From contig CAWBMP010000004.1 in NCBI GenBank assembly GCA_963790025.1, forward strand, positions 992,001 through 1,056,000: a DNA stretch of 64,000 nucleotides. Reading direction: 5' to 3'. Positions 8,943-45,509 of the stretch are shown here, piece by piece. This stretch comes from Nitrospirota bacterium. Lineage in GTDB: Bacteria; Nitrospirota; Thermodesulfovibrionia; Thermodesulfovibrionales; Dissulfurispiraceae. The position numbers and the translations under genes are program-made. The notes beneath the pieces are model-generated. The model saw only the letters and a list, made by a program, of their open reading frames with translations, was not told where the DNA came from and did no database searches. Every line of letters begins with the position of its first letter. Position 1 is the stretch's first letter.

Positions 8943-8966
8943 TTGTTTGGGTCAAGAGCAGCGCGG

Positions 8967-9266
8967 TCAGCAGAAGAATGTTTGCAGTTTTCCCCTGAGT
9001 CCTTTTGCGGTTTGCAGAAGTGTTGTCGACATCTTCCTTATCGTCGCCAGGCCACAAGTAATGACGTCTTTGGTCGTCACTTCCCAGCCCTCTTTAATTT
9101 TTCCCGATATCAATCTCAAAATTTTCGCTATGGCTTCATGGAAACGTTCGATGAGTTTCTCCAGAAGGTAAGCGATATAAACTTCTATGGCGAGAGCTGC
9201 AAAGCTTGCCAACTCCTGATGATGATTACGGAAATCTTTTACAAGCTGCTCTATTAAATGATTCAT
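8967..9266 (-). CDS. Hypothetical protein (99 aa)
   Basis: Strong AAGGAGG RBS; coupled to the upstream EEP gene; no family recognised. Confidence 0.6.
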   Translation of the reverse strand: MNHLIEQLVKDFRNHHQELASFAALAIEVYIAYLLEKLIERFHEAIAKILRLISGKIKEGWEVTTKDVITCGLATIRKMSTTLLQTAKGLRGKLQTFFC

Positions 9267-9276
9267 AGTTCCTCCT

Positions 9277-10044
9277 TTAAATATTGAAAGTGGCGCTTAC
9301 CGGGCAGTGGTCTGAAACAGTTGACCAGTAGTTATAATCATCTTCGTGGCTTTTGCAGTCCAGGCGGCAGGCCCCTCCAACGGACACACCTTTAAAATGC
9401 GGGACAAGGGCAGGAGAAACAAGGATATGGTCAACCCTGCTTCCGTACTTCTCGGTCATGGTGTAAGCATCTCCAGCAGTAGCCAGCACAAATCTGGTAG
9501 CCTTTACAAAAGACTTGAGTTCCTCAAGGTTCTCGCCTCGACCACTAAAGCAGTTCATGTCGCCCAGGAGCAGCATGCGCTTATCGGCGGCAAGCTCTTT
9601 AATTATCCTGGTGAGCACTTTCCACTGCATCCTTCTTGTGTTCATATCCTTTTTCTTCTTTCCGGACTTCAGGTGGACGACAAGGACTTCAAAAAGAAGA
9701 CCTGTCTCAGTGAATTCAAATTCACCAAGCAGCGCAGGTCTTACTCTTCTGCCAACATCCACCTCGTCGTACGTTTTGAAACCAAGAGATTTCACGCGTA
9801 AGCCGTTGTAGAGCAGGCCGACCTTCTGGCTTGGATACTTCGTGGCAACAAATTTCCACTCTTCGCCGAGGAAATAAGTCGCATCCTTCTGAAAAAGACC
9901 GGGGTCCGTGATTTCCTGAACACCTGCAACGTCACATCCCTCCATCTCGCTGAAAAGGGCCATGTTGTCTTTTTCATAGCCCGCCTTTCCAAACCACTCT
10001 ATATTTAGAGTGGTTACTGTAAGTCCTTCTGTTTTTTTCTCCAT
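9277..10044 (-). CDS. Endonuclease/exonuclease/phosphatase (EEP) family protein
   Basis: TLNIEWF, VAGVQEI, VHLKS, LLGDMN, VDHILVS, SDHCPV. Confidence 0.9.
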   Translation of the reverse strand: MEKKTEGLTVTTLNIEWFGKAGYEKDNMALFSEMEGCDVAGVQEITDPGLFQKDATYFLGEEWKFVATKYPSQKVGLLYNGLRVKSLGFKTYDEVDVGRRVRPALLGEFEFTETGLLFEVLVVHLKSGKKKKDMNTRRMQWKVLTRIIKELAADKRMLLLGDMNCFSGRGENLEELKSFVKATRFVLATAGDAYTMTEKYGSRVDHILVSPALVPHFKGVSVGGACRLDCKSHEDDYNYWSTVSDHCPVSATFNI

Positions 10045-10144
10045 TTCTTCTCCTTTTTTGGGCACAAAAAAGCCGGTGATCCGTATAACCGATACCAGCC
10101 CTTTAGGGGTTATTTGTCTGAGGCGAAAATTCTAACTGCGGATT

Positions 10145-11119
10145 TTAGTGAGGCAGGGCTACTGTAAAGAAAACAAAGGCGTGGTCCGATGCGAAGACCT
10201 TTTCCTCAACTTCAGAAAAGCGTTCGAAGTCAAAGGGGACTGTGTTCCCATCCTCGAAAACAGCCGTTCCGCTACCCTTGGGCAATCCTCTTCTCTCGAT
10301 ATAAGGGATTCCTCTGCTGCTCTTCGAAAGAGCCGGGCTAAGTAGTATGTAGTCGAAATGCGTGACGATGTGGTGTGCGGTCCAGTAATGTGTCCACCGT
10401 TCATACTCCGGCAGCCGTGCAATAACGTCTTCCATCCCAAGTTCAAAAAGTGGCTGGAGCGCCGATGAATCCGGAGTGTCGTTAAGGTCACCAGCCACAA
10501 CAAAGGCAGCCGATTCAAATAACTCATCAGGAAACCGGCCCTTAATGATCTCTGCAACTCGTTCAGCCTGCATTCTTCTTTTGACACAAGCAGCCTCTTT
10601 CTCGTCATCTGTTCTTCCTGAACGGGATTTGAAGTGGTTAGCAAAAATCGTGAGCGGGGCGCCGTTGACATCCAGGGTTATCTCCAAACAATCCCTGCTG
10701 AAGAGGTATTCTCCATGCTCGGTTCTCTCATCTTTGTGGCTCCTCACGCTTACAACAGGAAACATACTCATAACGCCGACATTCACCAGCCGCTCATAGT
10801 GTCCGGCAACAAGCATGGTATATTGATACGCATCATCCAGGAAACTTTTATTGAAAACATCAAGCGCCGCCATGCTTTCAACTTCCTGAAGTATTACCAC
10901 GTCCGGCAAACTGCCGTTGCCGCATTTCAGAGCTAACGCCGCAAGCTCTCGAGATTCCGGATGACTCAGAATTTGACTGTCGTCCGTGGCGGCAGGAAGA
11001 TACCTGTAATCTTTGGGCACCTCCTCATAATGAAATTGACCGGGTGCCTTAAACCCTGTTTTGTACAGCACAAACATGTTATGCATATTGGCAGTGCAGA
11101 CCGTTACGGTTTTCATCAT
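10145..11119 (-). CDS. Endonuclease/exonuclease/phosphatase (EEP) family protein
   Basis: TANMHNMF, DVVILQEVE, NHFKS, VAGDLND, FDYILLS, SDHAFV. Confidence 0.9.
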   Translation of the reverse strand: MMKTVTVCTANMHNMFVLYKTGFKAPGQFHYEEVPKDYRYLPAATDDSQILSHPESRELAALALKCGNGSLPDVVILQEVESMAALDVFNKSFLDDAYQYTMLVAGHYERLVNVGVMSMFPVVSVRSHKDERTEHGEYLFSRDCLEITLDVNGAPLTIFANHFKSRSGRTDDEKEAACVKRRMQAERVAEIIKGRFPDELFESAAFVVAGDLNDTPDSSALQPLFELGMEDVIARLPEYERWTHYWTAHHIVTHFDYILLSPALSKSSRGIPYIERRGLPKGSGTAVFEDGNTVPFDFERFSEVEEKVFASDHAFVFFTVALPH

Positions 11120-11131
11120 TTCCTCCTTTCA

Positions 11132-12151
11132 TTAATTGCTGCGCTCAGACTCTGCTGATGCTCTTTCAAAAGCGGCGTCAGTCATTGAGCCTATGTAGTC
11201 CGCAACCATCCTTTTGATTGATGTGGTTGAAATGTAGCCCCTGTCCATTGCTTTGACCCATCGGCCAATGTCCGAGTCCATTCCCCTGCGAAGCTGTTCG
11301 CAACATGAATAAAAAAGGAATCGGAAACTGCTTTCCCGTTTCTTCCTCAACTGTTCAGATGCCGCATAGGAATATATGGCCCGGTAATTAAACGCGAGCA
11401 ATCCCTCAATCGCCTTAAACACCCTTTTCGAAAAAGCGACCATGGAGCTGCTGCTCTGTCTGACCAAGTCATCAATCAGGATGTCCCTGATAGAAGCTTC
11501 CGTATCGCCAAGCACACAAGCGATTTGATCAGGTATATCGCCCCGGGTTATGAGGCCCACTGCAATGGCGTCCTCGATGTCACGGCCTAAATAGGCAATG
11601 ACATCAGAGGCGCGCACTATGCAGCCCTCGAGAGTCATCGGCATAATCAGAGTGCTGTAGTGCGCCACTTTAAAACAGCTATTGAGTTCTGTTTCGAAAC
11701 ATGTCCAGGTCTTGCGGTAATTGGGGACATACTGTCTGCGTAACATCTCGCCGTTGTGGCAGAGGATTCCATCCAGCACCGGCAGCGACAACTCCAGTCC
11801 GTTTTCAAGCACCGTGAGTATCCTTGCGCTCTGGGCGTTATGGGCAAAGAATCCGCAGCCCGACTCCATGCACAGGGCATTCAGATATGCCTCTCCTTCG
11901 TGACCATATGGCGTATGCCCCAGGTCGTGACCAAGTGCGATTGCCTCGGTGAGATATTCGTCACACCTTAATAAACGGGCTATCCAGCGGGCCACGTGAC
12001 TGACGAGTTGCACATGTAGCCACCTCCGGGTGATTCCATCTCCTGCTCCCGCCTGAAACGCCTGGGTCTTGTCATACCGGGCATACGCTTTTGACCCAAT
12101 AATCACCCCGCTTTCCTTAAAATAGTCGGCTCCGGCCTGCATTGTTTTCAT
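11132..12151 (-). CDS. HD-domain dGTP triphosphohydrolase-like protein
   Basis: KTQAF, AIALGHDLGHTPYGHEGE, HNAQS.R, DVIAY..RDIEDA, VADYIGSMTD. Confidence 0.85.
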   Translation of the reverse strand: MKTMQAGADYFKESGVIIGSKAYARYDKTQAFQAGAGDGITRRWLHVQLVSHVARWIARLLRCDEYLTEAIALGHDLGHTPYGHEGEAYLNALCMESGCGFFAHNAQSARILTVLENGLELSLPVLDGILCHNGEMLRRQYVPNYRKTWTCFETELNSCFKVAHYSTLIMPMTLEGCIVRASDVIAYLGRDIEDAIAVGLITRGDIPDQIACVLGDTEASIRDILIDDLVRQSSSSMVAFSKRVFKAIEGLLAFNYRAIYSYAASEQLRKKRESSFRFLFYSCCEQLRRGMDSDIGRWVKAMDRGYISTTSIKRMVADYIGSMTDAAFERASAESERSN

Positions 12152-13753: not shown

Positions 13754-14737
13754 ATGAAGATAGGAATTGATGTAGGATACGGGTATACCAAGGTCGTCAC
13801 AACGCATTCCTCAATTATCTTTCCATCCCGTGTGGGTCCTGCCAGGGAGTTGTCGTACTCGCTCAAAGAAGGCACTGACGTTATGGGAGAAACTGTCGAA
13901 TATGAGGGCGAACGATATTTTGTAGGGGAGAAGGCAAGACATAGCGATGTTACCTACACCCTCATGACAAGAGGCTGGATCGAGAGCAAGATGTATGGGG
14001 CATTGCTTACTTCGGCCCTTACCAGGGCAATGAACGGCAGATATGCTTTAGCTGACCCTGAAGAAATAATTATTGTCACCGGCCTTCCCGTAGATTATAT
14101 GAGAGATAAAACCAAAGCCGAAGAGAGCCTCGGAAAGGCGTGCGATGGGATTGGCCTCCGTATCACAGGCATCAATATAATACCGCAGCCTTTCGGCTCT
14201 TTTTTTGACATGTTTTACGATAATAACGGTGATATTGCCGGCAGCGCACCTTTCTTAAAAAGGATTGGGATAGTCGATATCGGTTATCACACCACGGATT
14301 ATATTCTTATCGAGGAGGCTCAACGCAATATCGAGAAGGCCTCTGGCAGCGTTCCTACTGGGGCCCATGAGATATACGATATTGTAGCCAGAGAATTAAA
14401 GAACATGTTCGACAGAGATACAGTTACTGCGGAAGAGGCCGAGCACTGCGTTAAAACCAAACATTATAAAGTCTCGGGTCAAAACAAAGATATGGGTACC
14501 CTGGTTGGCCGAGTGCTGTCACAAGTGGGGCAAAAGATAACTGGTATTGTTAAATCTAAATGGAACCTTGAAGGAGAAATTGACATTGTCCTGCTAACCG
14601 GAGGCGGAGCTGCGCTTATTCAGCCGCACATCTCATCTATAGCGCATACTCACTTCCTGATAAATGAACCCCAGATGGCCAATGCGCGAGGATATTATAA
14701 GAGGAGCGTCATCCTGGAACGAAAAATTAAAGGTTAG
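13754..14737 (+). CDS. ParM/StbA-family actin-like segregation ATPase
   Basis: IGIDVGYGYTK, VTGLPV, IPQPFG, IVDIGYHTTD, LLTGGGA. Confidence 0.9.
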   Translation: MKIGIDVGYGYTKVVTTHSSIIFPSRVGPARELSYSLKEGTDVMGETVEYEGERYFVGEKARHSDVTYTLMTRGWIESKMYGALLTSALTRAMNGRYALADPEEIIIVTGLPVDYMRDKTKAEESLGKACDGIGLRITGINIIPQPFGSFFDMFYDNNGDIAGSAPFLKRIGIVDIGYHTTDYILIEEAQRNIEKASGSVPTGAHEIYDIVARELKNMFDRDTVTAEEAEHCVKTKHYKVSGQNKDMGTLVGRVLSQVGQKITGIVKSKWNLEGEIDIVLLTGGGAALIQPHISSIAHTHFLINEPQMANARGYYKRSVILERKIKG

Positions 14738-14752
14738 CGGAGACATGGGCGG

Positions 14753-15049
14753 ATGGAAAAAACAGCAATATGCTTCATACGATTGTACCCTGATAATCCG
14801 GAGGATGCCCTTATTATTGCCGGCCTCGGCACAAGAAAAAGAAAAGGGGAGAAATCCAGGGTCATAAAAGACATACTTTATGCTCATTTCAGAAATAAGA
14901 AGAGCAGTCTCCCGGAACCGCCAACCGAATCACGCAAGGGGATTAAAGGACCATCGTCTCAGCTCCATCCGAAAAGCACTGCGCTGTCGGATGATGAAAA
15001 AGTGACATTAAAAAAGAACCTCGACGAACTTTCAGATATGCTTATGTAG
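14753..15049 (+). CDS. Putative ParR-like DNA-binding adaptor
   Basis: Small basic protein directly after parM; RHH-like N-terminus and C-terminal helix. Confidence 0.6.
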   Translation: MEKTAICFIRLYPDNPEDALIIAGLGTRKRKGEKSRVIKDILYAHFRNKKSSLPEPPTESRKGIKGPSSQLHPKSTALSDDEKVTLKKNLDELSDMLM

Positions 15050-18725: not shown

Positions 18726-19319
18726 CTAAACACCTGCTGCCGCAGTCAGCGCCGAGTATGGCACAGCACGGCGGGCCCATTCGCTCCCCGGGTATTTCTC
18801 CGTCAGGGTATCGTAAGCCCTGCGCAATGGTGAAGCCTCATGAAACTTCTTGTACTCGGCCACACCCAGATAAAAAATAGCCTCTGGAGTTGCCCCTGCA
18901 TTTGGATGCTGCTCTATGACTGAAGTGAATGCCTTGATCGCGTCGTTAAAGTGGTCGGTGTCGAAAAAGACCTTTGCCCTGCCAAGTTCAAGATGGGCAA
19001 GCAGGTCATCAATGGGGACATATCCCACTATCCGGTGGTGCTCTTTCCCCGACTTACCGTGGATTATAAGGGTCGGGGTCCATTTGATGTTAAATTGTTC
19101 CATAAGCTCAACCGGCTTATCAAAGAAGCACTGGGTTTTCAGAGGAATGAAATTATCCTGGATAAACTTCTGGACCTGCTCACTTGAATACGGACCCGTA
19201 TTCATTGCAGCGCAACCAATTCAACCGTCAAACCAGAAATCATGATAGATCGGCTTGCCTTCCCTTTTAGCCTTTTTTATTGCCTCGTTGAAGTTCCCTT
19301 CCCATATTATCTCGGCCAT
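18726..19319 (-). CDS. Selenocysteine-containing thioredoxin-fold protein (UxxC) with C-terminal TPR, 197 aa
   Basis: GGAGG RBS, ATG 19319; MAEIIWEGNFNEAIKKAKREGKPIYHDFWFDG-U(TGA 19223-19221)-IGC reads in frame into the 18726..19205 ORF; WTPT cis-Pro motif. Confidence 0.85.
19185..19204 (-). promoter_or_regulatory. Candidate SECIS hairpin
   Basis: TGAATACG-GGTC-CGTATTCA stem-loop 16 nt 3' of the in-frame UGA. Confidence 0.7.
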
Positions 19320-19359: not shown

Positions 19360-22300
19360 TCATTTATCATGAAACTGACCTGATGTCAAACACCCTGTTC
19401 CTGCACGCACCCGTTTGCCGGTGATTATCCTTGACGCATTGCTTTCAAGTGTATCTATCCTACCCTCAAATGCTGCATTAGCCAAAATCGTGGTTGTCCT
19501 CTGAAATGCTGCCGACGCAAGAAAACTTTTTGAGTACAGCGGTATCTGACTGATGCCGAGGAGCACGGGAGTCGCTGTCGGAGGCTTCAAGCCTCTTCGC
19601 CGGGTCCTGTCACACTCATCTTCAAATTCGCTCTTATGAATAATATCACCTGTCAGAAACCTTGCCCCCCGGCTGTCTGTAACTTTCACAAATCCGGTCA
19701 TCTGGCTAAGTATTATTTCAAAATGCTTGTCATGTATTACCACTCCCTGTTTGCGGTATATCTTCTGGGCTTCATCGAGTAAATATTTCCACACTGCTCC
19801 GCCACCTGCAGCATGCAACAGATCATGGGGGTTGACTGCACCGTCAATGTTACTGAGCTCCGCCGCTCTGCGCGGCCTTCTTGCTTCAAGAAGGTCAATA
19901 ACCTCCGGAAGCCCGCCGGTTATGTCCATGGGAGTGACAACTGCTCCACCGGTATGAAATGTTCGCAGGGTAAGCTGGGTCCCGGGCTCACCTATGGACT
20001 GAGCTGCGATAATACCCACCGCGTCCCCTGTCTCTGCGGGCCTGCGGCTGCCGACATTGAATCCGTAGCAGCGCGCACAAACGCCGCGTTGCGCCTTGCA
20101 GGTAAGCACAGACCGCACTTTGACCTTTTCTATTTTTGCCTTGCTGATTTTTGCCGCTGTCGCTTTATCCAAAACGGTGCCATACGATACGAGCACAGTG
20201 CAGGAGTCTATGTCCAGAACGTTATCTGCCAATGCCCTGCCGGTTATTCTCTCCTCCAGAGAAATTTCTACTGTACCGCCGTTCTTCAGCGGTCCAAGGT
20301 AAATGCCTTCGAGCGTCCCGCAATCATCCGTAGTTACGATGAGGTCACGCGCAGCACTCACCAGCCTTCTCGTAAAATAGCCCGCCGCCGGCGTCTTCAT
20401 GGGGCCATCCACCCTGCCCTTTCGCGCCCCGTGCGTGGAAAGAAAAAACTGGAATGCACTTAACCCTTCTCTGAAATTCGATGTAATCGGCATTTCTACA
20501 ATTTCACCCGTGGGCTTGGCCATCAAACCCCTCATGCCGTTTATTTGGCGTATCTGGTTGAAGTCGCCTCTCGCGCCAGAATCACACATCATAAAAAGGG
20601 CATTGGATTCTACATGCCGGTCTTCTTTTAATACGCGCATCGCTTCAGATGTTATCCTGTCGGTTGCTCTCGTCCATACGTCGATTTCCTTATTATGCCT
20701 TTCGTTGTCAGACATCAAACCGGTTTCATAATGGCTCCTCACCTCCGCTGCTTCCTCCTCTGCCTCAGCAACAATGGCCGCCTTTTCGGAAGGGACGAGC
20801 ATGTCATCAAGACAAAGCGATATGCCCGACAACGTCGCATATTTAAACCCAATGCCTTTTATCTCATCCAGAAACCTGATCGTCTCCCTGACGCCGCACT
20901 TTTCATAGCACAACTCGATTAAGCCGGCAAGTTCCTTTTTATTTAAGACTTTATTTATTACCGCGAAGGGTATACCTGCTGGAGTTATGGCATAGAACAG
21001 CACCCTTCCAGCCGTTGTTCTTACCAAGGCGCCATCTATTCTGACCTGAATGCTGGAATGTTCTTCTACAATATTGTTTGCATATGCAATACACACCTCG
21101 TCCACATCCGAGAAAAGCATTCCTTCCCCTTTTCCCCTTTTTCCCGATTTCCCATCGCTGGTCAAATAATAAATACCCAGGACAATGTCCTGAGACGGCA
21201 ATAAAGCAGGCCTGCCGTTGGCCGGATGGAATAAATTGTTAGTGGACATCATGAGGACCCTCGCCTCTATCTGTGCTTCAAGTGAGAGAGGCACATGCAC
21301 TGCAATGGTATCTCCGTCAAAATCGGCATTGAAGCCCGAACACACAAGAGGATGGAGCCTTATTGCAGCGCCTTCAACAAGGACAGGATCAAAGGCTTGC
21401 ATGCTTAATTTATGCAAAGTCGGCGCCCGGTTTATTATGACTGGATGCTCGGCAATTATATCATCGAGGGCGTCCCAGACTTCTGGTTTCTCTTTTTCAA
21501 AAAGCCGCTTTGCCTGTTTCAGCCTTGGGGCAAACCCATTTTTAATAAGCCACCGGTATATAAATGGCCTGAAAAGCTCAAGTGCCATTGCCTTCGGAAT
21601 GCCGACCTGATGGATTTTCAATTCCGGCCCTATAGTAATATGTGCCCTTCCGGAATAGTCGACCCTTTTGGCAAGAAGATTATGTCTGAATATTCCACTC
21701 TTAGAGCTTATCATCTCTGAGAGCGATTTAAGCGGCCTTTTTTGAGACCGGTTTTTGACGGCAACATTCCTGCCATTGTCGAGCAGGCTGTCAACTGCGG
21801 CCTGAAGAAGCCTTTTTGCATTCTGAAGTATTATTTCTGGAGCGCCGAGGTGAATAAGTCTTCGCAAGCTTTGATTTTTGTAAATGACCTTGCTATAAAG
21901 CAGATTAAGATCGGAGGCAACAGTAGTCCCGGCGTCAGGAAAAATTATGGGGCGCAGGTCAGGGGGCAATACAGGCAGCATGTCTAAAATCATCCACTCC
22001 GGTTTGTTTCCGGACTTCAGGAGTTTCTCGATCAAAGAGAGTCTGCTTCTTTTTCTCAGGGATAACGTGCCATTCTCTTTAAGTCCCTTCGGAATGGCAT
22101 CCAGGTCAAGGCCTGTAAGTAGTTTCCTGATCGCTTCCGCACCGGTTTCAACATGGAAATGATCGCATGAAGTCCGGTATTTTCTGTACTCTTCATGTGT
22201 AATTGTCTGGTTCTGTTTGAGACCGCTGTCGCCCGGATCAATTACAACATAAAATTCGTATTGCACGATTTTTTGGACCTGCCGGGGAGGCAGTCCCAGT

Positions 22301-22671
22301 ATCCTTGCAAGAACGCTTTTAGGCCCTTTGTAATACCAGATGTGCGCAACAGGCGCAGCGAGAGTTATGTGGCCGAGTCTTTTTCTTCTCTCTTCCGGTT
22401 CCAGCAGCCCCGTACCGCAAGTCTTACATGAGGCTGCTCCACCGTTATCTGTGCCACAAGAACATTTACCCTTTCTTACCGGGCCGAATATTCCTTCGCA
22501 GAATAACCCATTTTTTACCGGGCCGCCATTTTTTAAACTGAATGTTTCCGGCGAAGACACCTCGCCATAAGATAATAAACTCTTCCCGAGGGGACTTAAA
22601 AGACCGATTCTAAGAGAATCAAATGCCTGATTATCGATCATAGGTTGTTGGCTGCAGGGACATGCCTCCAT
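19360..22671 (-). CDS. rpoC: Orphan, shortened DNA-directed RNA polymerase beta' subunit paralogue (1103 aa)
   Basis: [70 protein letters not shown], RAGTG; no rpoB or ribosomal protein genes nearby. Confidence 0.95.
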   Translation of the reverse strand: [1103 protein letters not shown]

Positions 22672-22700
22672 TATTTTGTCGCAACAAGACGCTATAGTAA

Positions 22701-33643: not shown

Positions 33644-34432
33644 TCATTTCATTGAAATCGGCAATACCCCTCTGTCGCCTGATGGAAACTGTATCACTTC
33701 GCTGAATCTGCATCCGTTCACAAGGAAATGAGACCACAAGACAAAGGATACAGGGGGAAGGGCCGCCTGTCTTTTCGTCATATCATTCTGCAAGTACTGG
33801 AATATCCTGCGGAGCCGCTCACCGTTGGGCACTACCAGCATGACATTATTTCTGAAAGATGATATTTTCTCAAAAACCTTCGACCTGCCCATGCCGGCTG
33901 CATCTATCTCCACATCGAAAGTATACGCCTCTCCTTTATACGGAACTATCCTGATTCTGAAATCTGGGAAAAAGGTGCGCCTCCTCTCCCCTTTCTTTTT
34001 AATCTGTCTGCCAAACGCCTTCCGTGCGTAATACTCTGTGTGGATATATTCTATTCTATAGAGATTATGCACCTCAGCCTCTTCCACCATCTTGCGCATA
34101 GTAGAGGCAACCATGAGCTCGTGCATGAGTTCGATAGTTTTGGGAAACACATACCGTATGTTTTCGATTTCAAACCCATACTTTAATACGACCTCATAGG
34201 CGCCAGCTTTCTGCAGCACAACAATCGGACTGTCGTGCCTGTCCACCTTTTTAGACTGGATAAGACCGGCATTCTCCAACTGTAACAGGCGTTTCCATGC
34301 ATATTTGGAAAATTCTTTTGAAGCTTCCTGCTTCGGAAAATATTTCTTACCTATAGAAATGACATTGCTCGGCCCATAGGAGAGATGTTTCAATATTTCG
34401 TAATCCCGTTCCGTTATCTTCTCGATTCTCAT
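33644..34432 (-). CDS. Replication-relaxation (Replic_Relax)-like protein
   Basis: N-terminal wHTH (ITERDYEIL...LLQLENAGLI), HELMV, FPDF, VEID; translationally coupled to virD4. Confidence 0.7.
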   Translation of the reverse strand: MRIEKITERDYEILKHLSYGPSNVISIGKKYFPKQEASKEFSKYAWKRLLQLENAGLIQSKKVDRHDSPIVVLQKAGAYEVVLKYGFEIENIRYVFPKTIELMHELMVASTMRKMVEEAEVHNLYRIEYIHTEYYARKAFGRQIKKKGERRRTFFPDFRIRIVPYKGEAYTFDVEIDAAGMGRSKVFEKISSFRNNVMLVVPNGERLRRIFQYLQNDMTKRQAALPPVSFVLWSHFLVNGCRFSEVIQFPSGDRGVLPISMK

Positions 34433-36417
34433 AGACTGTCCATGGGAAACTCATCCGTTTCCTGCAAAAAACCTAATTTGTCGGCCCTAGCGGCCTGAGT
34501 TGTTCTGCTTTCCGACTTTTCGAGTTTACGCAGGTACCCTTGAACATCAGAGGCCCTTTCTTTCAACAAATCCTGGATTTCCCCCTTTTTGATGTCGTAG
34601 GGGACAGCCGGCATATAAAATTCAAATGGTTTATTCAGCAATCCCTTGTATTTCCGGTCCTTATAATAAGGAAGCTGATTGGCAAAAAATGGCCTGATCC
34701 CTTTTGCGAGCACCAGGCATTTGCTTTCATCCATATAGTGAATATTATCTGCTGTTATCAGCGGGGCCTTCTCAGCCTTTTCATAATACCTGAATGAAAT
34801 AAAATCAAAGACCCCTCTGCTTTTCATGGGAGAATTGAATGAAGTTTCCCCAAGCCATAACGATATTTCTTTGCACATTTCGTATGAGCATCCCGGCAAT
34901 ACGATGATTGTGCGTAATGACGATATAAATGACTGAGCGCTGCCCGACTTCATTTTTTTCATCATGCCCTCTATGTCGGATTTGTCCTGCACATAAATGG
35001 TCATGCCGGCCCCTGAAGATCTTCCGGTCGCTGCGAATTCATCAACTTTCGGCAGATTCAGGCGTGCAAATTCATCAAGGTAAAACCATGCGTGGCGCGG
35101 TTTTGCTCCCTTTTTATTGGCCTCGGAGGCTTTTTCGTAATCCCGCAGCATAAGAAGCCGAGCTATCATGCTTGCCATCACTTTCATGTCATTCCTCTGC
35201 AGTTCTGCTTTGACCACAAACAGACATGGCTCGCTGAAAAATATTTCTATGTCAAAATCATTCCGTATAAGTGCCTGCCGCAATGTCGGACCATCCATAA
35301 ACTGAAGTTTTCGGTATAGGCCTTGCATCGCATTGACTCTTTCCTGCGGCATAGTGTCAGCAAAGAACCTGAACTCATCAATAACATCTCTACTCCCGGT
35401 GCTTGCTATGAAGCGTGTCAGTTCATCAGGAGGAAGTTTGACCGCATCAAGCACTGTAGTGAGATTTCTGTATTCGGGAGGCATTTTAAGCACCGCCATC
35501 AAAATTGACCATATCAACCGGTATTCCCTCCCTATAAAATGGTCTGTGTCGGATTTCATTTCACCAACCTCGGCAAAGTAGCTGCCGAACAACGCATTGA
35601 TTATCTCTTTTAGGGCATCATGTGTCTTCTGGTTCGAAAAATCGCTTTCCACCATCATTAAGGGATTAAAATGCATTTTCCATTTATACGGATCGAAATT
35701 AATTACCTTTCTGCCTTTCGCCCACCATGCATGGCCCACTATGTCAACAATGTCTTCATCAGGCTTGACATCGACGCAAAAAACTGAACAATTACTGAAA
35801 GAATCATTTACAATGTTGGTAATCAGGAAACTCGATGTTTTCCCTGAACCCGGAGGCCCCGGAATCAATATCCCCTCCTGCCTCCTCTTCTTATCGATCC
35901 CAATTCTTTTGCACTTATAAGAGCCAATCTGAAAAAAATTATCCTCCGCGGTCTTTTTCTCGACAAACCCGGATACTTTAATAAGGACTTGCATAAGACC
36001 GAAAGACACTGCAAGAGACATAAGGGCCAGTACCGGAGAAGCGACAATTTCGTGATAAATAAGGTAATAAGGAATTGTGCCCAGAGCATAAAGCATCACA
36101 CTACCCCCTGGTCCCCAGACAGCATAAACATGGACCTTGCCGGGGATCGCGAGTCTCGACAATATCTCTCGCTGCGTAGCAAAACGTCCCGAGGTGGCGG
36201 GATTGTCTTTTATACGTACTCTTCCACGAGACAGTACTGTTATAAAGAATGCAATAATAAAAAAAATCGCCAGGCAGACTAACGAACAAAGCACAATTAT
36301 CTGGCTGGGACTTACATGAAGGCCGGCTATTCTCCTGATTGCTATGGCAAGGTCCGACAACGGACCCTTATTCAGTGCATGCTCAATATCTCTCAGTGCC
36401 ATCGCCTGCCCTACCAT
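34429..36417 (-). CDS. Type IV coupling protein (VirD4/TraG/TraD-like)
   Basis: N-terminal TMs, GPPGSGKT, HFNPL, FYLDEF, GRSSG..M.IYVQD. Confidence 0.9.
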   Translation of the reverse strand: MVGQAMALRDIEHALNKGPLSDLAIAIRRIAGLHVSPSQIIVLCSLVCLAIFFIIAFFITVLSRGRVRIKDNPATSGRFATQREILSRLAIPGKVHVYAVWGPGGSVMLYALGTIPYYLIYHEIVASPVLALMSLAVSFGLMQVLIKVSGFVEKKTAEDNFFQIGSYKCKRIGIDKKRRQEGILIPGPPGSGKTSSFLITNIVNDSFSNCSVFCVDVKPDEDIVDIVGHAWWAKGRKVINFDPYKWKMHFNPLMMVESDFSNQKTHDALKEIINALFGSYFAEVGEMKSDTDHFIGREYRLIWSILMAVLKMPPEYRNLTTVLDAVKLPPDELTRFIASTGSRDVIDEFRFFADTMPQERVNAMQGLYRKLQFMDGPTLRQALIRNDFDIEIFFSEPCLFVVKAELQRNDMKVMASMIARLLMLRDYEKASEANKKGAKPRHAWFYLDEFARLNLPKVDEFAATGRSSGAGMTIYVQDKSDIEGMMKKMKSGSAQSFISSLRTIIVLPGCSYEMCKEISLWLGETSFNSPMKSRGVFDFISFRYYEKAEKAPLITADNIHYMDESKCLVLAKGIRPFFANQLPYYKDRKYKGLLNKPFEFYMPAVPYDIKKGEIQDLLKERASDVQGYLRKLEKSESRTTQAARADKLGFLQETDEFPMDSL

Positions 36418-39020
36418 ATATCTGCTGCGTTAATCAGGCTGGCTGCTACTCCGTGAGGGTATGTTTTCGCAAAGGCCTTCGTCGTTTCCTTTTCTACCTC
36501 AGCTTCCGTTGCTTCGGGCATATTTACCCTTATTTCCTCCCTCATAGCAGCATACGCCTCCTTATCAGGCGGGTCTGTGGTGAAAGTAGCATAGTTGAGC
36601 GGCGTGGACATAAACCTCGTCACACCTTTTCCGGATCCTCCCGACCTTAGCTTCTTAATATGGACAAATGCCTCGCTGTAAAATCCCATCAGGCTTCTTA
36701 AACTCTCGGTAGTATATGCGTCCGGTTCCGATAATCCAAGGTAGCCCATCGCATCGAGCATACTCTGGCTAGGTTGGCGGAAATAAACCTGGATGTTCGC
36801 CTGGGAGAGGCAGACTTCTCCTACTTTTCCGGCTTTGAGGAGATCTGAAACTTTTTGTGTCATTACCCCCACAGCTGTATTGTAATGCCGGTATGTCCTG
36901 AACGCATTGTCAACGAAATCTGCGCCGACCGAATCAATAAAAATCCGGTGGGCCTCATCGATCGGGAGCCATTTTCGTCCAAGTAATTTTTTCACCTGTT
37001 CACCGATGACAAGCATAATATTAAAAAGCATTGCCCGCATAAGGTCCGGCGCCTCTTTTAAGCCTCCTATATCGAATACTATAAACGGATTGTCCACATT
37101 GAACGAGGACCTCCTGAAATAGTTTGCATATTTCCCTTTGCCGACATAAAACGCGAGGCGTTCGGAAAGAGATTTCCCCTTTTCGCCGAAATGGGATTTC
37201 AGTATATTATTAAAGTCTTCCAGTTCAGGCATCCTGTTATAGTGGTGAAGTTTTTCGTATGTAAACTGTATTGCCTTGTCGATCAGCGCTATGTCGGACT
37301 GGGCCAATTCCTCGTTCTTCCGCGTCATGATGGATGAAAGAAAGTTCGACAGCAGCAGGAGGCGCTCTTTATCGAGCTCACACTCAAACGGGTTATACGA
37401 TACAGGGTCATTGAGGCTGAACGATATATACTCGCCGCCTAGCAAAGAGCAAAGTTTTTTATATGAACCCATCATGTCGATAATAAAAAACCTGTCGCCC
37501 CTCCTGAAAAATTTGACCGCCATCATATTCAGCAAAGCGCTCTTTCCCGTGCCTGTTTCACCGGATATAATAAAATGCGGCACTGTGCCATCGAAGAAAT
37601 CGAGATACACCGGTTCACACGTCCTTGAAAGCCCTATCATGCCCGGGTTTTTTGTACCAAGCCAGGCCCCGGTTGCCGGGACTATTTGAGCAAAAGAATG
37701 GGAAGGCAGTTTAAACGTACGCGACAAATGGTTCTTGTTATCTAGCGGGGCATAATGGAAAGGGAGACAGTTTTTAAAGAGGCTTTGAGATAAAATGTTG
37801 TCAGCAAGCATCGGCAGTTCCAGGTCCGCAATTTTAGCGTTAACCTTCTGCGCATAGGTATTTGCGAGGTCGTAGGTCTCGCCTACATTGGTAATGGCAA
37901 ATGAAAAATGGAATACTTTTTTTCCAGCAAGCATGTTTTTTTCGATCGTGTCCACATCTGCTGCTATAGCGGAATTGTCATTGTCCTCCCTGCCGAAAGG
38001 ATTCATCAACCCGTATGAAGCAAAATTTCCTTTCCATTTAAGCGCTCTCTTTTCTTTGTCTTGTACCTCTACAAAGCCGGTCAGGCATATATTGATATCT
38101 CCAGGTATTTCCATAAGCTTATACATAATGCCCGGTACAGTATATTGAGGGGCATTCGTGGCTGCGCTGGTCCGGTAGTAATGACCGTCAGAATAGACAA
38201 ATGTGTCATCGGTATAAATAAATGTCCTGAACAATTGCCTGCTCAGATCTATTTGAGATATGTATTCAGGCGCACCCAGACCCTCTTTAAACATATTCTT
38301 GTGCAGGTATTGATGGAAATAGTTGATAAGGTCCTGGCCTTCGCATCTGCGGAGTCCGAACCCGTTATTTTTCATCATGGATTCGAACAAAGTGATACTG
38401 CTGCTGAAAATATTAATTTTTTTGGTTATGTCCATTGTCGCCGATTCCAGTTCCACCCTTTCTATAGCGCTAACAGACCTTTCTCCCAGCGTAATCTTTC
38501 TCGGCACATGAAAAATTGCTATATAAAACCGCATCGTCCTCGGGAAAACGCTCCTTCCGCCCCAAAGTCCCGCTTTTGAACTGTTGTGCAAAAACATCAC
38601 CTGTTCATTATAAAGAGAGTCAATGGCAGCCGGTCCCTCCCCCTCCGATCCATTCGTTGAATCGGAGACTATAGGAAGATACAAACTGACATTACGGTCC
38701 GACGCTACAATAAATTGGAACGCATATCCTTCTGGTATTTGGAGAAGTGCTGCTTCCATCAGATTCGCTATTGCGAGTTTCTGTCCGTCAAGGCTGTTTG
38801 CCTCATGTACGAAAGGGGTATACTCCCACATGGCCCCGACATATCTTTCTTTTTTGCCTGTATCTCCGAGGACAAACACCTTATACTGTCCGTTAAAGCT
38901 TCTATAGGGGAGCATGCTTCCAAAAGAAGGCAGGGTTGTGAATGCTTCATTGACTTCCTGAACAGAATCGAATCGTATCCCGTCAAGGTCATGATCTTTT
39001 AATTTTTTTTCGATCTTCAA
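36411..39020 (-). CDS. VirB4/TraC-family T4SS ATPase
   Basis: ISGETGTGKS, IIDMMGSYKKLC.LLGGEY, YNPF, IDEAH, RTYRHYN..VGVMTQ. Confidence 0.92.
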   Translation of the reverse strand: MKIEKKLKDHDLDGIRFDSVQEVNEAFTTLPSFGSMLPYRSFNGQYKVFVLGDTGKKERYVGAMWEYTPFVHEANSLDGQKLAIANLMEAALLQIPEGYAFQFIVASDRNVSLYLPIVSDSTNGSEGEGPAAIDSLYNEQVMFLHNSSKAGLWGGRSVFPRTMRFYIAIFHVPRKITLGERSVSAIERVELESATMDITKKINIFSSSITLFESMMKNNGFGLRRCEGQDLINYFHQYLHKNMFKEGLGAPEYISQIDLSRQLFRTFIYTDDTFVYSDGHYYRTSAATNAPQYTVPGIMYKLMEIPGDINICLTGFVEVQDKEKRALKWKGNFASYGLMNPFGREDNDNSAIAADVDTIEKNMLAGKKVFHFSFAITNVGETYDLANTYAQKVNAKIADLELPMLADNILSQSLFKNCLPFHYAPLDNKNHLSRTFKLPSHSFAQIVPATGAWLGTKNPGMIGLSRTCEPVYLDFFDGTVPHFIISGETGTGKSALLNMMAVKFFRRGDRFFIIDMMGSYKKLCSLLGGEYISFSLNDPVSYNPFECELDKERLLLLSNFLSSIMTRKNEELAQSDIALIDKAIQFTYEKLHHYNRMPELEDFNNILKSHFGEKGKSLSERLAFYVGKGKYANYFRRSSFNVDNPFIVFDIGGLKEAPDLMRAMLFNIMLVIGEQVKKLLGRKWLPIDEAHRIFIDSVGADFVDNAFRTYRHYNTAVGVMTQKVSDLLKAGKVGEVCLSQANIQVYFRQPSQSMLDAMGYLGLSEPDAYTTESLRSLMGFYSEAFVHIKKLRSGGSGKGVTRFMSTPLNYATFTTDPPDKEAYAAMREEIRVNMPEATEAEVEKETTKAFAKTYPHGVAASLINAADIW

Positions 39021-39044
39021 AGGTTGTCCCTCAGCTCCTTACCC

Positions 39045-40004
39045 TTAAAACGTTTTTATATATTCGGCCCCATTTATATAATGTGGGATTTCATGGCTTT
39101 TACCTTCCCGTATAAGTCCTCTGATCAATTCATTCGGGAATAAAGCCTCCACAAGGGCCTTTCTGCCCCCTGCCGGTTTTTTTACGAGCCTTTGTGCTGC
39201 GGTAAGGTTAAGTGTCGAGGCAATTTGCTGCTGGACAAGATGCCTCTCCTGAGGAGGGAACAGGCCATAAAGCCGGTTGACCGTCTCAACGACATTAATA
39301 GTATGCAATGTCGCAAAGACAAGATGCCCGGTCTCAGCAGCATTGACCGCGAGCCTGGCCGTTTCAGTGTCCCGTATCTCTCCCACCAGTATTACATCAG
39401 GGTCCTGTCTTAAGGCATACTTAAGCGCATGGGTAATATCGTCGGTATCGCTGCCTATCTCCCGCTGATTTACCACAGAATAATTGGTGCTTTCAAAAAG
39501 ATACTCGACCGGGTTTTCTATTGTGATTAGATGTATGCTCTTCCTCTGTAGCATATGTTTTATCATGGCTGCAATAGTGGTAGACTTCCCGCTTCCCGTG
39601 GGCCCGGTCACCAGCACCATACCATTCTTCATATCCGCTACCTGATTCAGGTTTGCCGGAAGACCCAGGTCCTCAATATCAGGTATTTGCAGCGGAAGCA
39701 GTCGCAGCGCTATCGAAAGCCTTTTCCCATTTGAGTGAAAGTAGTTTCCCCTCCATCTTCTCGCTCCATAGGTGAATGAAAAGTCCCCGTCTTTGCCGGA
39801 AAAGCCAGCCGGGATGACATTATCCAGGAACCTGTTCATATTGGAAATGTCTACTGGATCAAGATCACTCCTGATCAAATCGCCATCAATACGAAATACA
39901 GGCTGATTCAGCTCGGCAAGATGAATATCGCTGGCACTGTGCTCGATGCCGACTGAAAGGATATCTTCGATACCAGAACTCAATTCAGTTAATTTCACAG
40001 CCAT
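39045..40004 (-). CDS. PilT/PilU-family ATPase (copy 1)
   Basis: ASDIHL, TGPTGSGKSTT, ALRQDPDVILVGEIRD, ETGHLVFATLHT, LIRGLIRE. Confidence 0.9.
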   Translation of the reverse strand: MAVKLTELSSGIEDILSVGIEHSASDIHLAELNQPVFRIDGDLIRSDLDPVDISNMNRFLDNVIPAGFSGKDGDFSFTYGARRWRGNYFHSNGKRLSIALRLLPLQIPDIEDLGLPANLNQVADMKNGMVLVTGPTGSGKSTTIAAMIKHMLQRKSIHLITIENPVEYLFESTNYSVVNQREIGSDTDDITHALKYALRQDPDVILVGEIRDTETARLAVNAAETGHLVFATLHTINVVETVNRLYGLFPPQERHLVQQQIASTLNLTAAQRLVKKPAGGRKALVEALFPNELIRGLIREGKSHEIPHYINGAEYIKTF

Positions 40005-40046
40005 TAATTTCCGCTCCCTGTTTTTTAATTTGTTGTGCAATAGTCC

Positions 40047-40066
40047 ACTTACTTGAATATTACTTG
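40047..40066 (-). promoter_or_regulatory. Island motif, extended form (CAAGTAATATTCAAGTAAGT)
   Basis: 9/10 motif match; 19 bp identical to 53085-53103 upstream of the pilin gene. Confidence 0.75.
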
Positions 40067-40106
40067 CTAAATTGCGTTCACGAAGTGATGACTGCATTGC
40101 AACTTT

Positions 40107-40640
40107 TTATTCGACCTTAAACCCGTCTTTTGCCAGTTGTTTTTTGACCTGTGTCACATATTTTATCTTTCTAAGCAGGTTATAGCTGTGATAATTGCCC
40201 ACCGCATGCCATGTATAGCCGTTCGAGACTATCTCGCTGGAGAGTTTATAGGCGGCGAGCAGTGAGGATATATAAGGGTCCAACATCTGCAGCTTTGTTA
40301 TCCCCAGCCTTTTGCCGATATAATAATAATTGACCTGCCATGGACCTATGTCGATATTATCAGTGCTTAATCGGGACAGGTAAAATACAGCCTCAACATA
40401 AGTCCTCGGATATATTGGTATGCTTTTGCCGTTTCCCAGATTCACGCATAGCGCCCATGGGTGTCCGTTGCTCTCCACCTGCTTTATGGCGTTAAGAAGT
40501 TCAACAGGCACCTGGAACCGCGCCGCAGCCTTATATTGAGCATCGCTGACTATCTCATGGATGCTCTGCTCAGCACTCGCAAAGGAAGGCAAAAAGCTAA
40601 TAAGGCAAAGCAAAAAACAATGAAAAGCCAACTTATACAA
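40107..40640 (-). CDS. Lytic transglycosylase (SLT domain, VirB1-like)
   Basis: Signal peptide, AIKQVES, DIGPWQVN, AVGNYHS. Confidence 0.9.
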   Translation of the reverse strand: MYKLAFHCFLLCLISFLPSFASAEQSIHEIVSDAQYKAAARFQVPVELLNAIKQVESNGHPWALCVNLGNGKSIPIYPRTYVEAVFYLSRLSTDNIDIGPWQVNYYYIGKRLGITKLQMLDPYISSLLAAYKLSSEIVSNGYTWHAVGNYHSYNLLRKIKYVTQVKKQLAKDGFKVE

Positions 40641-42549
40641 ACTTTTTCTCCTGCTTACTTACAAAATCATAGAGGTCCCCGCCAACCAGATTTTCTGAAC
40701 TCATCACATTCCCCCAGCGCAGCTTTGCCACATTTGCTCCACCGCCCGGAAGGTAGCTGAATCTAATGCCGTCAACCGCCGTCTTAGCTGCAAATACCTC
40801 TCCTTTACCTGCGGTGTTGAGCTTTGTCGCCATGGCCCCATCTGAGTCAGTGCCTCCCTGCGGCTTTGAAAAACTCACCCTTCCGTCTGTACCCGCCCGC
40901 ATGAGCACACTGTTCCAGGCCCCGGATTCGCTGTCCCGTACCTGGGCAACCACTCCTGTCTCTAACATTCCCTGTGGAATGCTGCTTAGCGCACCTCCTA
41001 GTTCTCCGCCGTTCACGCCTCCTTTAATATTTCCTGATACCCTTTGAGCGGAAACATAATCCGGGCTTGATGCCGATCTATCCTCTGTCACCGCAGCCAA
41101 CGCATTGCCAAAAGCTTCGCTGTTTTCTTTATTCATATCAAAGTTGCTAGCGGCGGTTGTAACAGGTGTGCCCTCAGGCGGCTGCCCTCTTCCGCCGGTA
41201 CTGGCCACCACATTACCGCCTCCCCAGCCTCCGCCGCTGAGAATGCGACCGGCTTGTGCAGCTCCAGCGCCACTACCGCCTGGACCCGGGCTTCTTACCA
41301 TTGAACGCATTTTTGCATAGGCCGGCGTTGTGAGACTACGGTAAATGCCCGATACTGCAGCGCTGACGATGCTTGACAGCCCTATATTGCGAGGCCTGTT
41401 GCCAAACAGAAGAAAGCCAGTCAGAATTGGAGATGATAAAACCACTGCAACCTTTGCCAGCATAATGAAAGTTTTCTCCAAATCAAAAAGGTTAAAACCT
41501 CCGTCATTAAGGCCGGCGATCGTAAATCCATCGACAGCAGCAATAATAACCGGGATAAAAGAGAGCCAGAGATAACCCTCAAGGTATGTAATAATAGCCT
41601 TCCATAGTCCGGGCAGCATAGCAATGCCTATAATAAACGGGTACATTACAAAATATATAATTATAAGAAGCTTAAGAAAGAATGGAAGGACCTTAGCGTA
41701 CAGAAAAGCACTGTAGAATGCTACAGGAGTAAAAATGTGCAGAAATGCGGCGAGCCCCCCGTTGCCGATTTCAGTCCATTGTTGTTTTGCCTGATCTGAG
41801 GCCGCAGATATAAACCTTTCAAACATATTGCTTTTGTCATATTTCCCAAACTTGTCCGGATCGATCCCCTGAGCCGACGCTGCCTCTTGATTTGCCTGTT
41901 TGACTGCTGACACAAGCGCGTTACCTTTTGCCGAACAGTCCGGAGGTGCACCTTGTCTGATAAAGTAATCCTGATAATAACTGTAGTTATACGTTATCTT
42001 CTGATCGGCATACTGTCCATCATTATTGCCGTATTTTGTGAAGTCTGCGCAGTTTTTATTCCAGTACTCAATGTCAGGGGCAAGCGCTGCGGTATTTTTT
42101 ACCAATTCGCTTTGGGCCTGCTGCACCTTCATGAAATATTTTTCAAACGCAAAAGGCATTTTCGAAGGCTGGAAATCATTCTGATAGACTTTTGCGCTTA
42201 TAACATCTACTGATTCTCGTCCCCACCTCATCACCTCGCCTATCACGAGCACCGAATACCTCAGCCCAACAGGTATTTGCCCCAACTGCTGATAAGGCTG
42301 GCTCTGATAATTAACGTCCATATTTGTTGTCCACCCGTATCCAAAAAATAGCCATAAGAGGAAAATCCCTAAAAAATGCTTTTTCGATTCAGCCAAAAAA
42401 GAATGAGACCCTCCGGTTTCCTTATATATGAGAACAAAGCTCACTATGGCTATCAAGGCATAAAGATATTTAAATCCGGTCGGGAGCAATTGGATCATTT
42501 CCAGTCCTATAGCCGCCCCCTGGGCAATTTGTTCGATAGCAGTGTCCAT
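40633..42549 (-). CDS. TraG-N/VirB6-like polytopic membrane protein
   Basis: Multiple TMs around a periplasmic domain plus Gly-rich cytoplasmic tail; T4SS context. Confidence 0.6.
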   Translation of the reverse strand: MDTAIEQIAQGAAIGLEMIQLLPTGFKYLYALIAIVSFVLIYKETGGSHSFLAESKKHFLGIFLLWLFFGYGWTTNMDVNYQSQPYQQLGQIPVGLRYSVLVIGEVMRWGRESVDVISAKVYQNDFQPSKMPFAFEKYFMKVQQAQSELVKNTAALAPDIEYWNKNCADFTKYGNNDGQYADQKITYNYSYYQDYFIRQGAPPDCSAKGNALVSAVKQANQEAASAQGIDPDKFGKYDKSNMFERFISAASDQAKQQWTEIGNGGLAAFLHIFTPVAFYSAFLYAKVLPFFLKLLIIIYFVMYPFIIGIAMLPGLWKAIITYLEGYLWLSFIPVIIAAVDGFTIAGLNDGGFNLFDLEKTFIMLAKVAVVLSSPILTGFLLFGNRPRNIGLSSIVSAAVSGIYRSLTTPAYAKMRSMVRSPGPGGSGAGAAQAGRILSGGGWGGGNVVASTGGRGQPPEGTPVTTAASNFDMNKENSEAFGNALAAVTEDRSASSPDYVSAQRVSGNIKGGVNGGELGGALSSIPQGMLETGVVAQVRDSESGAWNSVLMRAGTDGRVSFSKPQGGTDSDGAMATKLNTAGKGEVFAAKTAVDGIRFSYLPGGGANVAKLRWGNVMSSENLVGGDLYDFVSKQEKKFV

Positions 42550-43824: not shown

Positions 43825-43891
43825 TTGTTTCCTGCCGAATAAATACCGTCTGCCCCTACTCTGCTAAAAGGAGGCGACGGGGATTGCTATT

Positions 43892-45429: not shown

Positions 45430-45509
45430 AGCATCCCTTTCAACAGCAACTAGTCCCGGTATTTTTCGAGCTCACACATGCAATGTCCGTCTCCAGATTT
45501 TTAAGCACG

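Follow-up and report, generated by a model that had tools for sequence, protein, structure and literature searches.

A second, shortened β′ gene lies outside the rpoB-rpoC operon

The stretch of 64,000 nucleotides analyzed here, referred to as the window, covers positions 992,001 to 1,056,000 of contig CAWBMP010000004.1 (C4) of a Nitrospirota bacterium (assembly GCA_963790025.1). It harbors a gene for a second, shortened β′ subunit (RpoC) of RNA polymerase, together with genes related to conjugation and DNA partition (Table 1). The translated β′ paralogue was matched by the Pfam Rpb1 domains 1 to 5 in order, with E values from 1.9e-54 to 1.9e-14, and reached 1262.6 bits with TIGR02386, the NCBIfam equivalog cut-off being 963.5. 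It shares 50% identity with the bacterium's canonical RpoC (P0002). The genome consists of five contigs (3.45 Mb) and carries one rpoB, one rpoA, and one rpoZ gene. The canonical rpoC, of 1369 codons, is located directly 3′ of the only rpoB on contig C2, whereas the paralogue is found on C4, outside the rpoB-rpoC operon and without a second rpoB. C4 is longer than 1.7 Mb and has housekeeping genes on both sides of the paralogue, whose GC (guanine plus cytosine) content is 48.7% compared to 46.7% for the window.

The residues expected of a catalytic subunit were all present. The protein has two sets of four zinc-site cysteines (Cys70/72/82/85 and Cys784/858/865/868), and its trigger-loop residues R903 and H906 are the equivalents of E. 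coli R933 and H936. In a 49-sequence alignment comprising paralogues and canonical proteins, the NADFDGD motif (residues 448 to 454 of the paralogue), the eight zinc cysteines, and the equivalents of E. coli R425, R933, and H936 were invariant. E. coli numbering was taken from the alignment with an E. coli rpoC locus, and the placing of substitutions in named functional elements, beyond those given in the papers cited below, is our own assumption throughout. The C terminus is 16 amino acids shorter than that of the host copy. An AlphaFold2 monomer model computed from the 49-row alignment was of low confidence (mean predicted local distance difference test score [pLDDT], 63.7; predicted template modeling score, 0.45), the trigger loop (residues 885 to 918) and the jaw stump (933 to 944) having pLDDT values below 50.

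Table 1. Features of the β′ paralogue and its surroundings, with positions in the window
Feature	Position	Strand	Basis
β′ (RpoC) paralogue, short form, 1103 amino acids	19360..22671	-	Stop-free frame; five Rpb1 Pfam domains; TIGR02386; 50% identity to the genome's RpoC
N-terminal zinc-binding domain, four Cys kept, basic residues lost	22414..22464	-	Alignment
Catalytic NADFDGD motif, intact	21310..21330	-	Translation and alignment
Third deletion, short forms only, junction 20616/20617	20605..20631	-	Gap equal to canonical 694-704, E. coli 706-715
Bridge helix with two prolines (E. coli 787, 791) and seven or more other changes	20344..20433	-	Alignment, E. coli numbering
Trigger loop without SI3, deletion junction ~19935-19941	19906..19965	-	Gap versus canonical/E. 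coli; Thermus loop length; invariant Arg903 and His906
End of second trigger helix and jaw stump, junction 19845/19846	19816..19887	-	Gap versus canonical/E. coli; Thermus match
Thioredoxin-fold and TPR gene, in-frame TGA 19221-19223 at the redox motif	18726..19319	-	TGA=U translation; Pfam on 159-amino-acid part; synteny
ParM/Alp-like actin gene and 98-amino-acid open reading frame	13754..15049	+	Pfam ALP_N, MreB-like_C; synteny
HD-domain (dGTPase-like) gene and two EEP-nuclease genes	8967..12151	-	Pfam; PADLOC dGTPase
Type IV secretion system genes: 262-amino-acid Replic_Relax-like, coupling protein, TraC/VirB4, PilT/TraJ-like ATPase, SLT, TraG_N-like, TrbB/TraF-like thioredoxin, TraU-like	33644..46469	-	Pfam; NCBIfam

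SI3 and the jaw are missing from the paralogue

Comparison with the canonical host protein revealed two large gaps. The first one corresponds to canonical residues 931 to 1111 (181 amino acids; E. coli 942 to 1128), which form SI3 within the trigger loop, and the second one corresponds to residues 1143 to 1192 (50 amino acids; E. coli 1160 to 1211), which form the jaw. The segments spanning the two junctions read RTFHTGGAVVTPMDITGGLP (residues 903 to 922) and EARRPRRAAELSNIDGAVNPHDLL (residues 929 to 952). The best matches among solved structures were Thermus β′ proteins, which naturally lack SI3. The trigger loop of the paralogue has the length of the Thermus loop plus 1 residue, and the Thermus match jumps chain residues ~1283 to 1326, which are the jaw.

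Both gaps were found in 9/9 short forms of the paralogue, and both domains were present in 27/27 canonical proteins and in 7/7 long-form paralogues. Because they are common to all short forms while every canonical or long-form sequence examined has the two domains, the gaps are not an alignment accident. Judged from the alignments, the losses of SI3 and the jaw are in frame and at domain borders. At the SI3 site, a linker of 14 to 15 amino acids was left in the other eight short forms and is gone only in the copy of this genome, while the jaw stump ranged from ~5 to 17 amino acids across orthologues and differed by branch.

These results agree largely with a first-pass annotation of this DNA, which had called the gene a β′ paralogue lacking SI3 and the jaw. 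The identity to the genome's own RpoC, which adjoins the only rpoB, and the clean gaps relative to the host RpoC, to E. coli, and, for the jaw, to Thermus bear out both statements, and the host's canonical RpoC has SI3 and the jaw, so that the deletions are not shared by it. The annotation had placed the feature at 19835..19960, which is the right site, although the feature runs about 20 bases past each end. It had also described the loss as clean, which holds for the in-frame removal of both domains at their borders but, in the case of SI3, is fully true only of the present copy.

The losses are derived within a single clade of paralogues

A search of 5.8 billion proteins yielded 13 close relatives of 825 to 1127 amino acids (66 to 79% identical) and a few longer ones of 1306 to 1341 amino acids (55 to 59%), the mass of canonical RpoC proteins following at 47 to 55%. 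We built two trees, of 41 and 44 sequences, from which the SI3 and jaw columns had been removed. All paralogues formed one clade (support 100) with a long stem inside the Nitrospirota, adjoining canonical sequences of the Thermodesulfovibrionia. Within it, clade A consisted of long forms (G011, G078, and G166), and clade B comprised further long forms (P0017; P0014, G018, and P0016) and a single clade of the nine short forms (support 100). As every long form examined retains SI3 and the jaw, the loss of the two domains maps to the stem of the short clade, and in the sequence record, it is thus derived.

Orthologues with the same gaps were found in five genomes and four metagenome contigs, with conserved synteny. 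When JGI metagenomes were scanned for the pattern of the proline-containing bridge helix described below, only four contigs were detected, all with short forms, indicating that the paralogue family is rare. In an order-wide sample of 201 genomes, nine had two matches, of which G078, G166, and G094 were examined; the second copies of the first two were the clade-A long forms, and the copy fetched from G094 was canonical. The second rpoC of G013, situated on a 4.9-kb contig, fell among canonical RpoC sequences of another family and was set aside as a probable contaminant. When genome contigs were searched with the paralogue, the best 80 of 571 loci were all canonical RpoC (45 to 54% identity), with no orthologues among them. 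The 70 records returned by a PLSDB protein search were all below 60% identity (44.9 to 47.0% among the 25 matches listed, which included megabase-sized records filed as plasmids), and this search thus gave no close plasmid-borne relative. A literature search of listings and abstracts, with subscription journals and supplements outside its coverage, found nothing on a bacterial β′ paralogue or on a conjugation-linked one.

The rim-adjacent loop, the zinc domain, and the bridge helix are also altered

The short forms have a third deletion. The residues equivalent to E. coli 706 to 715 were missing in all of them and expanded in the clade-B long forms, at a site that we take to lie just after the secondary-channel rim helices. 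In the zinc domain, the short forms retained the cysteines, and the basic residues of the canonical motif were gone. The bridge helix of clade B reads GRVDGPMKTPAAGYF, compared to GLADTALKTAN(S/A)GYL in 105 of 121 β′ proteins. The double-proline helix was found in the remaining 16, all of them paralogues, and in none of the 105 canonical proteins. Clade A harbors the changes L783R, T786G, and L796F in this helix but no prolines.

We identified 42 alignment columns that were invariant in 27 canonical sequences and in which that residue never occurred in 13 paralogues, the partial copy of G001 being excluded from this census. These columns clustered in the zipper, zinc domain, lid, clamp helices, rim helices, bridge helix, trigger loop, and C-terminal region, a pattern that may be read as directed remodeling of the paralogues. 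The extra losses in the short forms (the rim-adjacent loop and the basic patch of the zinc domain), the double-proline bridge helix of clade B, and the linkage to conjugation genes described below are new.

Retained copies are under purifying selection

Pairwise ratios of nonsynonymous to synonymous substitution rates (dN/dS) among five short-form genes were between 0.11 and 0.21 in 10/10 pairs, at dS values of 0.43 to 1.5, compared to 0.012 to 0.027 for the canonical rpoC of the same genomes. By this measure, the paralogue gene is clearly under purifying selection. We then surveyed ten genomes of the genus, including the present one. The gene was full and open in four, cut at a contig end in one, split by a frameshift in one, a pseudogene in one, and reduced to a remnant in one; the two others (G005, 81% complete, and G008, 74%) were uninformative on its presence. 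Altogether, frames of ~1090 to 1130 amino acids were open in the four complete genomic copies and in metagenome contig L122.

In G004, the paralogue (L098, G004:C3, positions 8225 to 11600) and the coupling protein gene (21416 to 23265, with many stops) are both pseudogenes and appear to decay together.

The paralogue is linked to conjugation and partition genes

The window contains genes of a type IV secretion system (T4SS), among which the coupling protein and the VirB4/TraC ATPase were recognized by PF02534 (1.8e-31), PF19044 (8.7e-35), and PF11130; the NCBIfam TraC-F-type and VirD4-like matches were below their equivalog cut-offs. The 262-amino-acid protein is weakly similar to Replic_Relax proteins of other loci (BLAST E values of 1e-11 to 1e-14). 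In G006, in G018, and on the 23-kb metagenome contig L122, the β′ paralogue ends a co-directional run with the T4SS genes directly upstream. The order is secretion ATPase, TraC/VirB4-type ATPase, type IV coupling protein, 262-amino-acid Replic_Relax-like protein, an open reading frame (ORF) of ~300 to 340 amino acids that is absent in G018, and β′. Downstream of β′, these loci continue with a gene for a thioredoxin-fold protein, a small ORF, and a gene for a ParM-like actin, and in the short-form loci, an HD-phosphohydrolase gene and two EEP-nuclease genes come after the ParM-like gene. The ParM/Alp-like gene, for which the NCBIfam ParM and PRTRC-D matches were both below cut-off, is a conserved neighbor of the short-form paralogues and of the G018 long form, and the HD/EEP-nuclease genes are contiguous with the paralogue block in L122, G006, G003, G009, and G007.

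The gene for the coupling protein turned up in 8 of the 41 related genomes, and these eight coincide exactly with the genomes that harbor a clade-B paralogue or its pseudogene; the two genes share a contig in every case and are 3 to 20 kb apart. None of the 31 genomes without the paralogue had the coupling protein. Conjugation genes (coupling protein, TraC/VirB4, Replic_Relax-like, and ParM-like) accompany the paralogue throughout the clade-B genomes. In two of the three clade-A loci, the paralogue follows ParB and Replic_Relax genes. The intact T4SS genes of the element had dN/dS values of 0.03 to 0.15.

The T4SS genes of the window form part of a longer co-directional arrangement (33644 to 59695, minus strand) that continues with type IV pilus/type II secretion system (T2SS)-like genes to 59.7 kb and also includes an AbiEii toxin gene. 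The pilus/T2SS-like part encodes two more secretion ATPases, T2SSF, pilins, a PilP-like protein, and a secretin. The HD/EEP-nuclease operon (8967 to 12908, minus strand) persists in G002 despite the deletion of the paralogue and is therefore not strictly dependent on it.

The lost domains act together in pausing in E. coli

For the function of the lost parts, we relied on three papers (PMC4227799, PMC11077087, and PMC2988716). In E. coli, the jaw is the third SBHM domain, and SI3 is in contact with it as long as the trigger loop is unfolded. The his hairpin pause becomes ~3-fold shorter without SI3 and ~5-fold shorter without the jaw or without both (PMC4227799). According to the same paper, SI3 and the jaw are one interdependent module whose pause effects do not need downstream DNA, and the deletion of SI3 makes elongation up to 2-fold faster. 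When the trigger loop folds, SI3 moves from the jaw to the rim helices (PMC11077087). The joint loss of SI3 and the jaw is functionally sensible, since both act as an interdependent pause module (PMC4227799), and by analogy with E. coli, the loss of SI3, the jaw, and the rim-helix-adjacent loop looks like the removal of one functional module. As for the bridge helix, natural prolines in this element are described as "exceedingly rare" (Weinzierl 2010, PMC2988716).

Set against canonical RpoC, the paralogue is alike in its five domains, its catalytic motif, both zinc sites, and the presence of a bridge helix and a trigger loop, and it differs in having no SI3 or jaw, a shortened post-rim loop, a non-basic zinc domain, a double-proline bridge helix, and a linkage to conjugation genes. 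It resembles the naturally SI3-less β′ subunits of Thermus/Deinococcus, Firmicutes, and Actinobacteria (PMC11077087) in trigger-loop length. However, these keep the jaw and are the only β′ of their cells, whereas the paralogue represents a secondary SI3 loss where the housekeeping β′ has SI3. In the engineered E. coli enzymes lacking SI3 and the jaw (Windgassen et al. 2014, PMC4227799), nearly the same segments are gone, and the loop is likewise of Thermus length. Those are laboratory constructs in a sole β′, and the deletion of SI3 alone is not viable in E. coli without a suppressor (PMC11077087), whereas the paralogue occurs naturally beside the host's own β′ and is changed in many other places. 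Plant RNA polymerases IV/V and rare bacterial variants (PMC2988716) similarly have paralogous or variant catalytic subunits with natural bridge-helix prolines. The paralogue, for its part, is bacterial, is linked to an element, and has its prolines off the hinge positions reported as tolerated or superactive. Another parallel is offered by the actinomycete rpoB paralogues, in which a rifampicin-resistant second large core subunit pairs with the single copy of the other one. They nevertheless differ from the β′ paralogue in that they concern the other subunit, are chromosomal, have a role in antibiotic resistance, and have undergone no domain loss.

An element-borne alternative β′ may form a polymerase blind to hairpin pauses

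We favor the explanation, to which we give about an even chance of being correct, that the gene encodes an element-borne alternative β′ which joins the host β and gives a polymerase blind to hairpin pauses. The anatomy of the sequence, the derived loss, the selection, and the gene linkage from which it starts are demonstrated. An old duplicate of a Thermodesulfovibrionia rpoC would have become linked to DNA-transfer and partition genes, at first keeping SI3 and the jaw, as in the long forms, and later gaining the double-proline bridge helix in clade B. In this genus, it would then have lost, in frame, SI3 (two SBHM domains), the jaw (the third SBHM and docking partner of SI3), and the post-rim loop. 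The short forms would also have lost the basic patch of the zinc domain, with the catalytic core kept intact under purifying selection. The paralogue most likely pairs with host subunits, because the genome has one β, one α, and one ω gene, and it would most likely replace the host β′ in a fraction of the core enzyme. If engineered E. coli is a guide, an enzyme in which the SI3-jaw swivel module is absent would elongate faster and ignore hairpin pauses, and its role could be the expression of the element's own long co-directional operons. The predicted enzyme would be insensitive to hairpin pauses and not generally pause-free, and resistance to termination would be no more than a possibility, the cited passages of PMC11077087 leaving the effect of SI3 deletion on termination open. 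A stronger version is that a conjugative element, rather than acting on the host enzyme through an antitermination factor, swaps in a stripped β′ with a pre-kinked double-proline bridge helix, thereby making a dedicated pause-blind polymerase for its own genes as a counterpart of plant RNA polymerases IV/V. We consider this version possible but doubtful.

A number of observations weigh against the explanation of an alternative, pause-blind core enzyme. Viable SI3-deleted E. coli suppresses hairpin pauses but enhances consensus elemental pauses (PMC11077087), so that the term pause-resistant would apply at most to hairpin pauses. Most engineered archaeal bridge-helix prolines cut activity, except at two hinge positions, where they are superactive (PMC2988716). 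By a residue-name alignment, the prolines of the paralogue correspond to archaeal A818 and A822 and not to the hinges M808 or S824. A search of sequencing runs gave no RNA run with the gene and five DNA rows from two studies; a single one of these rows contained half or more of the sequence words. In terminator scans, the counts did not exceed those of shuffled sequences (4 versus 4.6, 5 versus 4.5, and 21 versus 17.7 expected), and the scans thus provide no link from the paralogue to a terminator-rich target; on the strand of the HD/nuclease operon, a simple scan found four hairpins, again no excess over chance.

Further points on the same side concern the fate of the gene and of its neighbors. 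The constraint on the paralogue is 6 to 7 times looser than that on canonical rpoC. In G004, three lesions mark the gene as a pseudogene: a tandem duplication of 14 nucleotides, a frame shifted at a run of eight A residues (A8), and a CAG codon turned into the stop TAG. Of the gene in G002, no more than the final 65 codons are left, and in G007, the gene is split, in an assembly that also splits its canonical rpoC. The paralogue is, in short, dispensable in the genus. The coupling protein gene carries stops in G001, G003, G004, and G007 (4/8 genomes), and the dS of the element genes equals that of chromosomal rpoC, which indicates that the element has long been inherited vertically in the genus. 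The element looks old and partly decayed. In the window itself, ~11 kb of unrelated genes (FKBP and a molybdopterin oxidoreductase operon) lie between the paralogue and the T4SS operon, and neither an integrase nor a Pfam or NCBIfam relaxase match was seen among the ORFs scanned.

These data also bear on the mechanism put forward in the first-pass annotation, which saw in the in-frame deletions a sign of selection, rather than random decay, for a pause- and termination-resistant enzyme. Selection as such is upheld for the retained copies by their dN/dS and their invariant catalytic residues, while the pseudogene and the remnant in two congeners speak for decay there. The more specific proposal of selection for pause resistance found no support, given the looser constraint, the eroding stumps, and the loss of the gene in two congeners. 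Its premise that SI3 and the jaw act through contact with downstream DNA is contradicted, as far as pausing is concerned, by the cited passages of PMC4227799. The conjugative setting of the gene had escaped the annotation.

Most of the signs of decay would be expected if the paralogue were a relic under relaxed constraint, a passenger of a fossil conjugative element that lost SI3 and the jaw as unneeded and possibly has little or no present function. The elevated dN/dS, the pseudogene in G004 and the remnant in G002, and the degraded coupling protein genes are in line with this idea, as are the long tree branches of the paralogues and the independent shrinkage of the linker and the jaw stump in several branches. 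We nevertheless regard it as rather unlikely. A dN/dS of 0.11 to 0.21 over dS values of up to 1.5 means that most replacements were purged, a level similar to that of the intact T4SS genes. Moreover, long frames stay open in four genomic copies and in L122, the catalytic residues are all invariant, and the three deletions are all in frame and at module borders.

A resistant replacement target, that is, a β′ that keeps transcription going when the host β′ is blocked by antibiotics or by jaw-binding phage proteins, appears improbable. Substitutions do cluster in the bridge helix (783 to 805) and the trigger loop, among which we take the residues that bind streptolydigin-type and bridge-helix-cap inhibitors to lie, and the jaw is gone. 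Furthermore, the gene is borne by a mobile element with a dGTPase-type defense match in the same block, and the actinomycete rpoB paralogues and plasmid-borne resistant target enzymes provide parallels. However, no biosynthetic or inhibitor gene was seen among the nearby ORFs scanned, no PADLOC family matches the paralogue (the only match, dGTPase, is for the HD protein), and resistance leaves the changes in the zinc domain, zipper, and lid unexplained. Even less probable is a noncatalytic regulator or decoy that titrates β, sigma, or elongation factors without transcribing. The altered surfaces of the clamp helices, zipper, and rim helices would suit it, but the catalytic Asp triad, the nucleoside triphosphate-contacting Arg, and the trigger-loop Arg and His, needless for a decoy, are invariant across the clade. 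Finally, although the second rpoC of G013 did prove to be of canonical type and probably contamination, an artefact here (contamination, a phage gene, misassembly, or gaps due to assembly errors) is excluded for practical purposes, because synteny and the same gaps hold across five genomes and four metagenome contigs; the size of C4, the housekeeping genes on both sides, the similar GC content, and the lack of phage genes nearby also speak against it.

It is generally assumed that a bacterium has a single core RNA polymerase, which sigma and elongation factors redirect. A second β′ in the same cell that naturally lacks SI3 and the jaw, the domains deleted in E. coli for the study of pausing, would be a ready natural experiment on the purpose of both, and the series from long form through proline bridge helix to short form gives the evolutionary order of events. 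If the favored explanation is true and the subunit joins the host β, mobile elements could reprogram transcription by exchanging a catalytic subunit, and biochemistry would gain an enzyme with unusual elongation properties.

Neighboring genes

No tRNA was found in the window. The thioredoxin/TPR gene adjoins the paralogue in most relatives. Reading TGA as selenocysteine (U) places its ATG at 19319 and reveals the redox motif DGUIGC, and the 159-amino-acid ORF is then the tail of a longer gene. On this translation, the gene downstream of the paralogue is that of a thioredoxin-fold selenoprotein shortened by ORF calling. A similar situation may exist farther along the window, where a molybdopterin oxidoreductase is split into a 217-amino-acid TAT/Fe4S4 part (27060 to 27713) and an 830-amino-acid part (27762 to 30254), both on the plus strand and 48 bases apart. 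By analogy with formate dehydrogenases, both parts may belong to a single gene that contains an in-frame selenocysteine codon.

About 100 bases upstream of the paralogue and divergent from it, we noticed a small ORF (22732 to 23019, plus strand) whose end resembles a PIN toxin by eye and which had no NCBIfam match; an overlapping minus-strand ORF of 112 amino acids, without a Pfam match, is probably spurious. In G003 (L104:11529-12887), a group II intron reverse transcriptase/maturase gene directly adjoins the paralogue, which suggests, as a further sign, that the paralogue block attracts mobile DNA.

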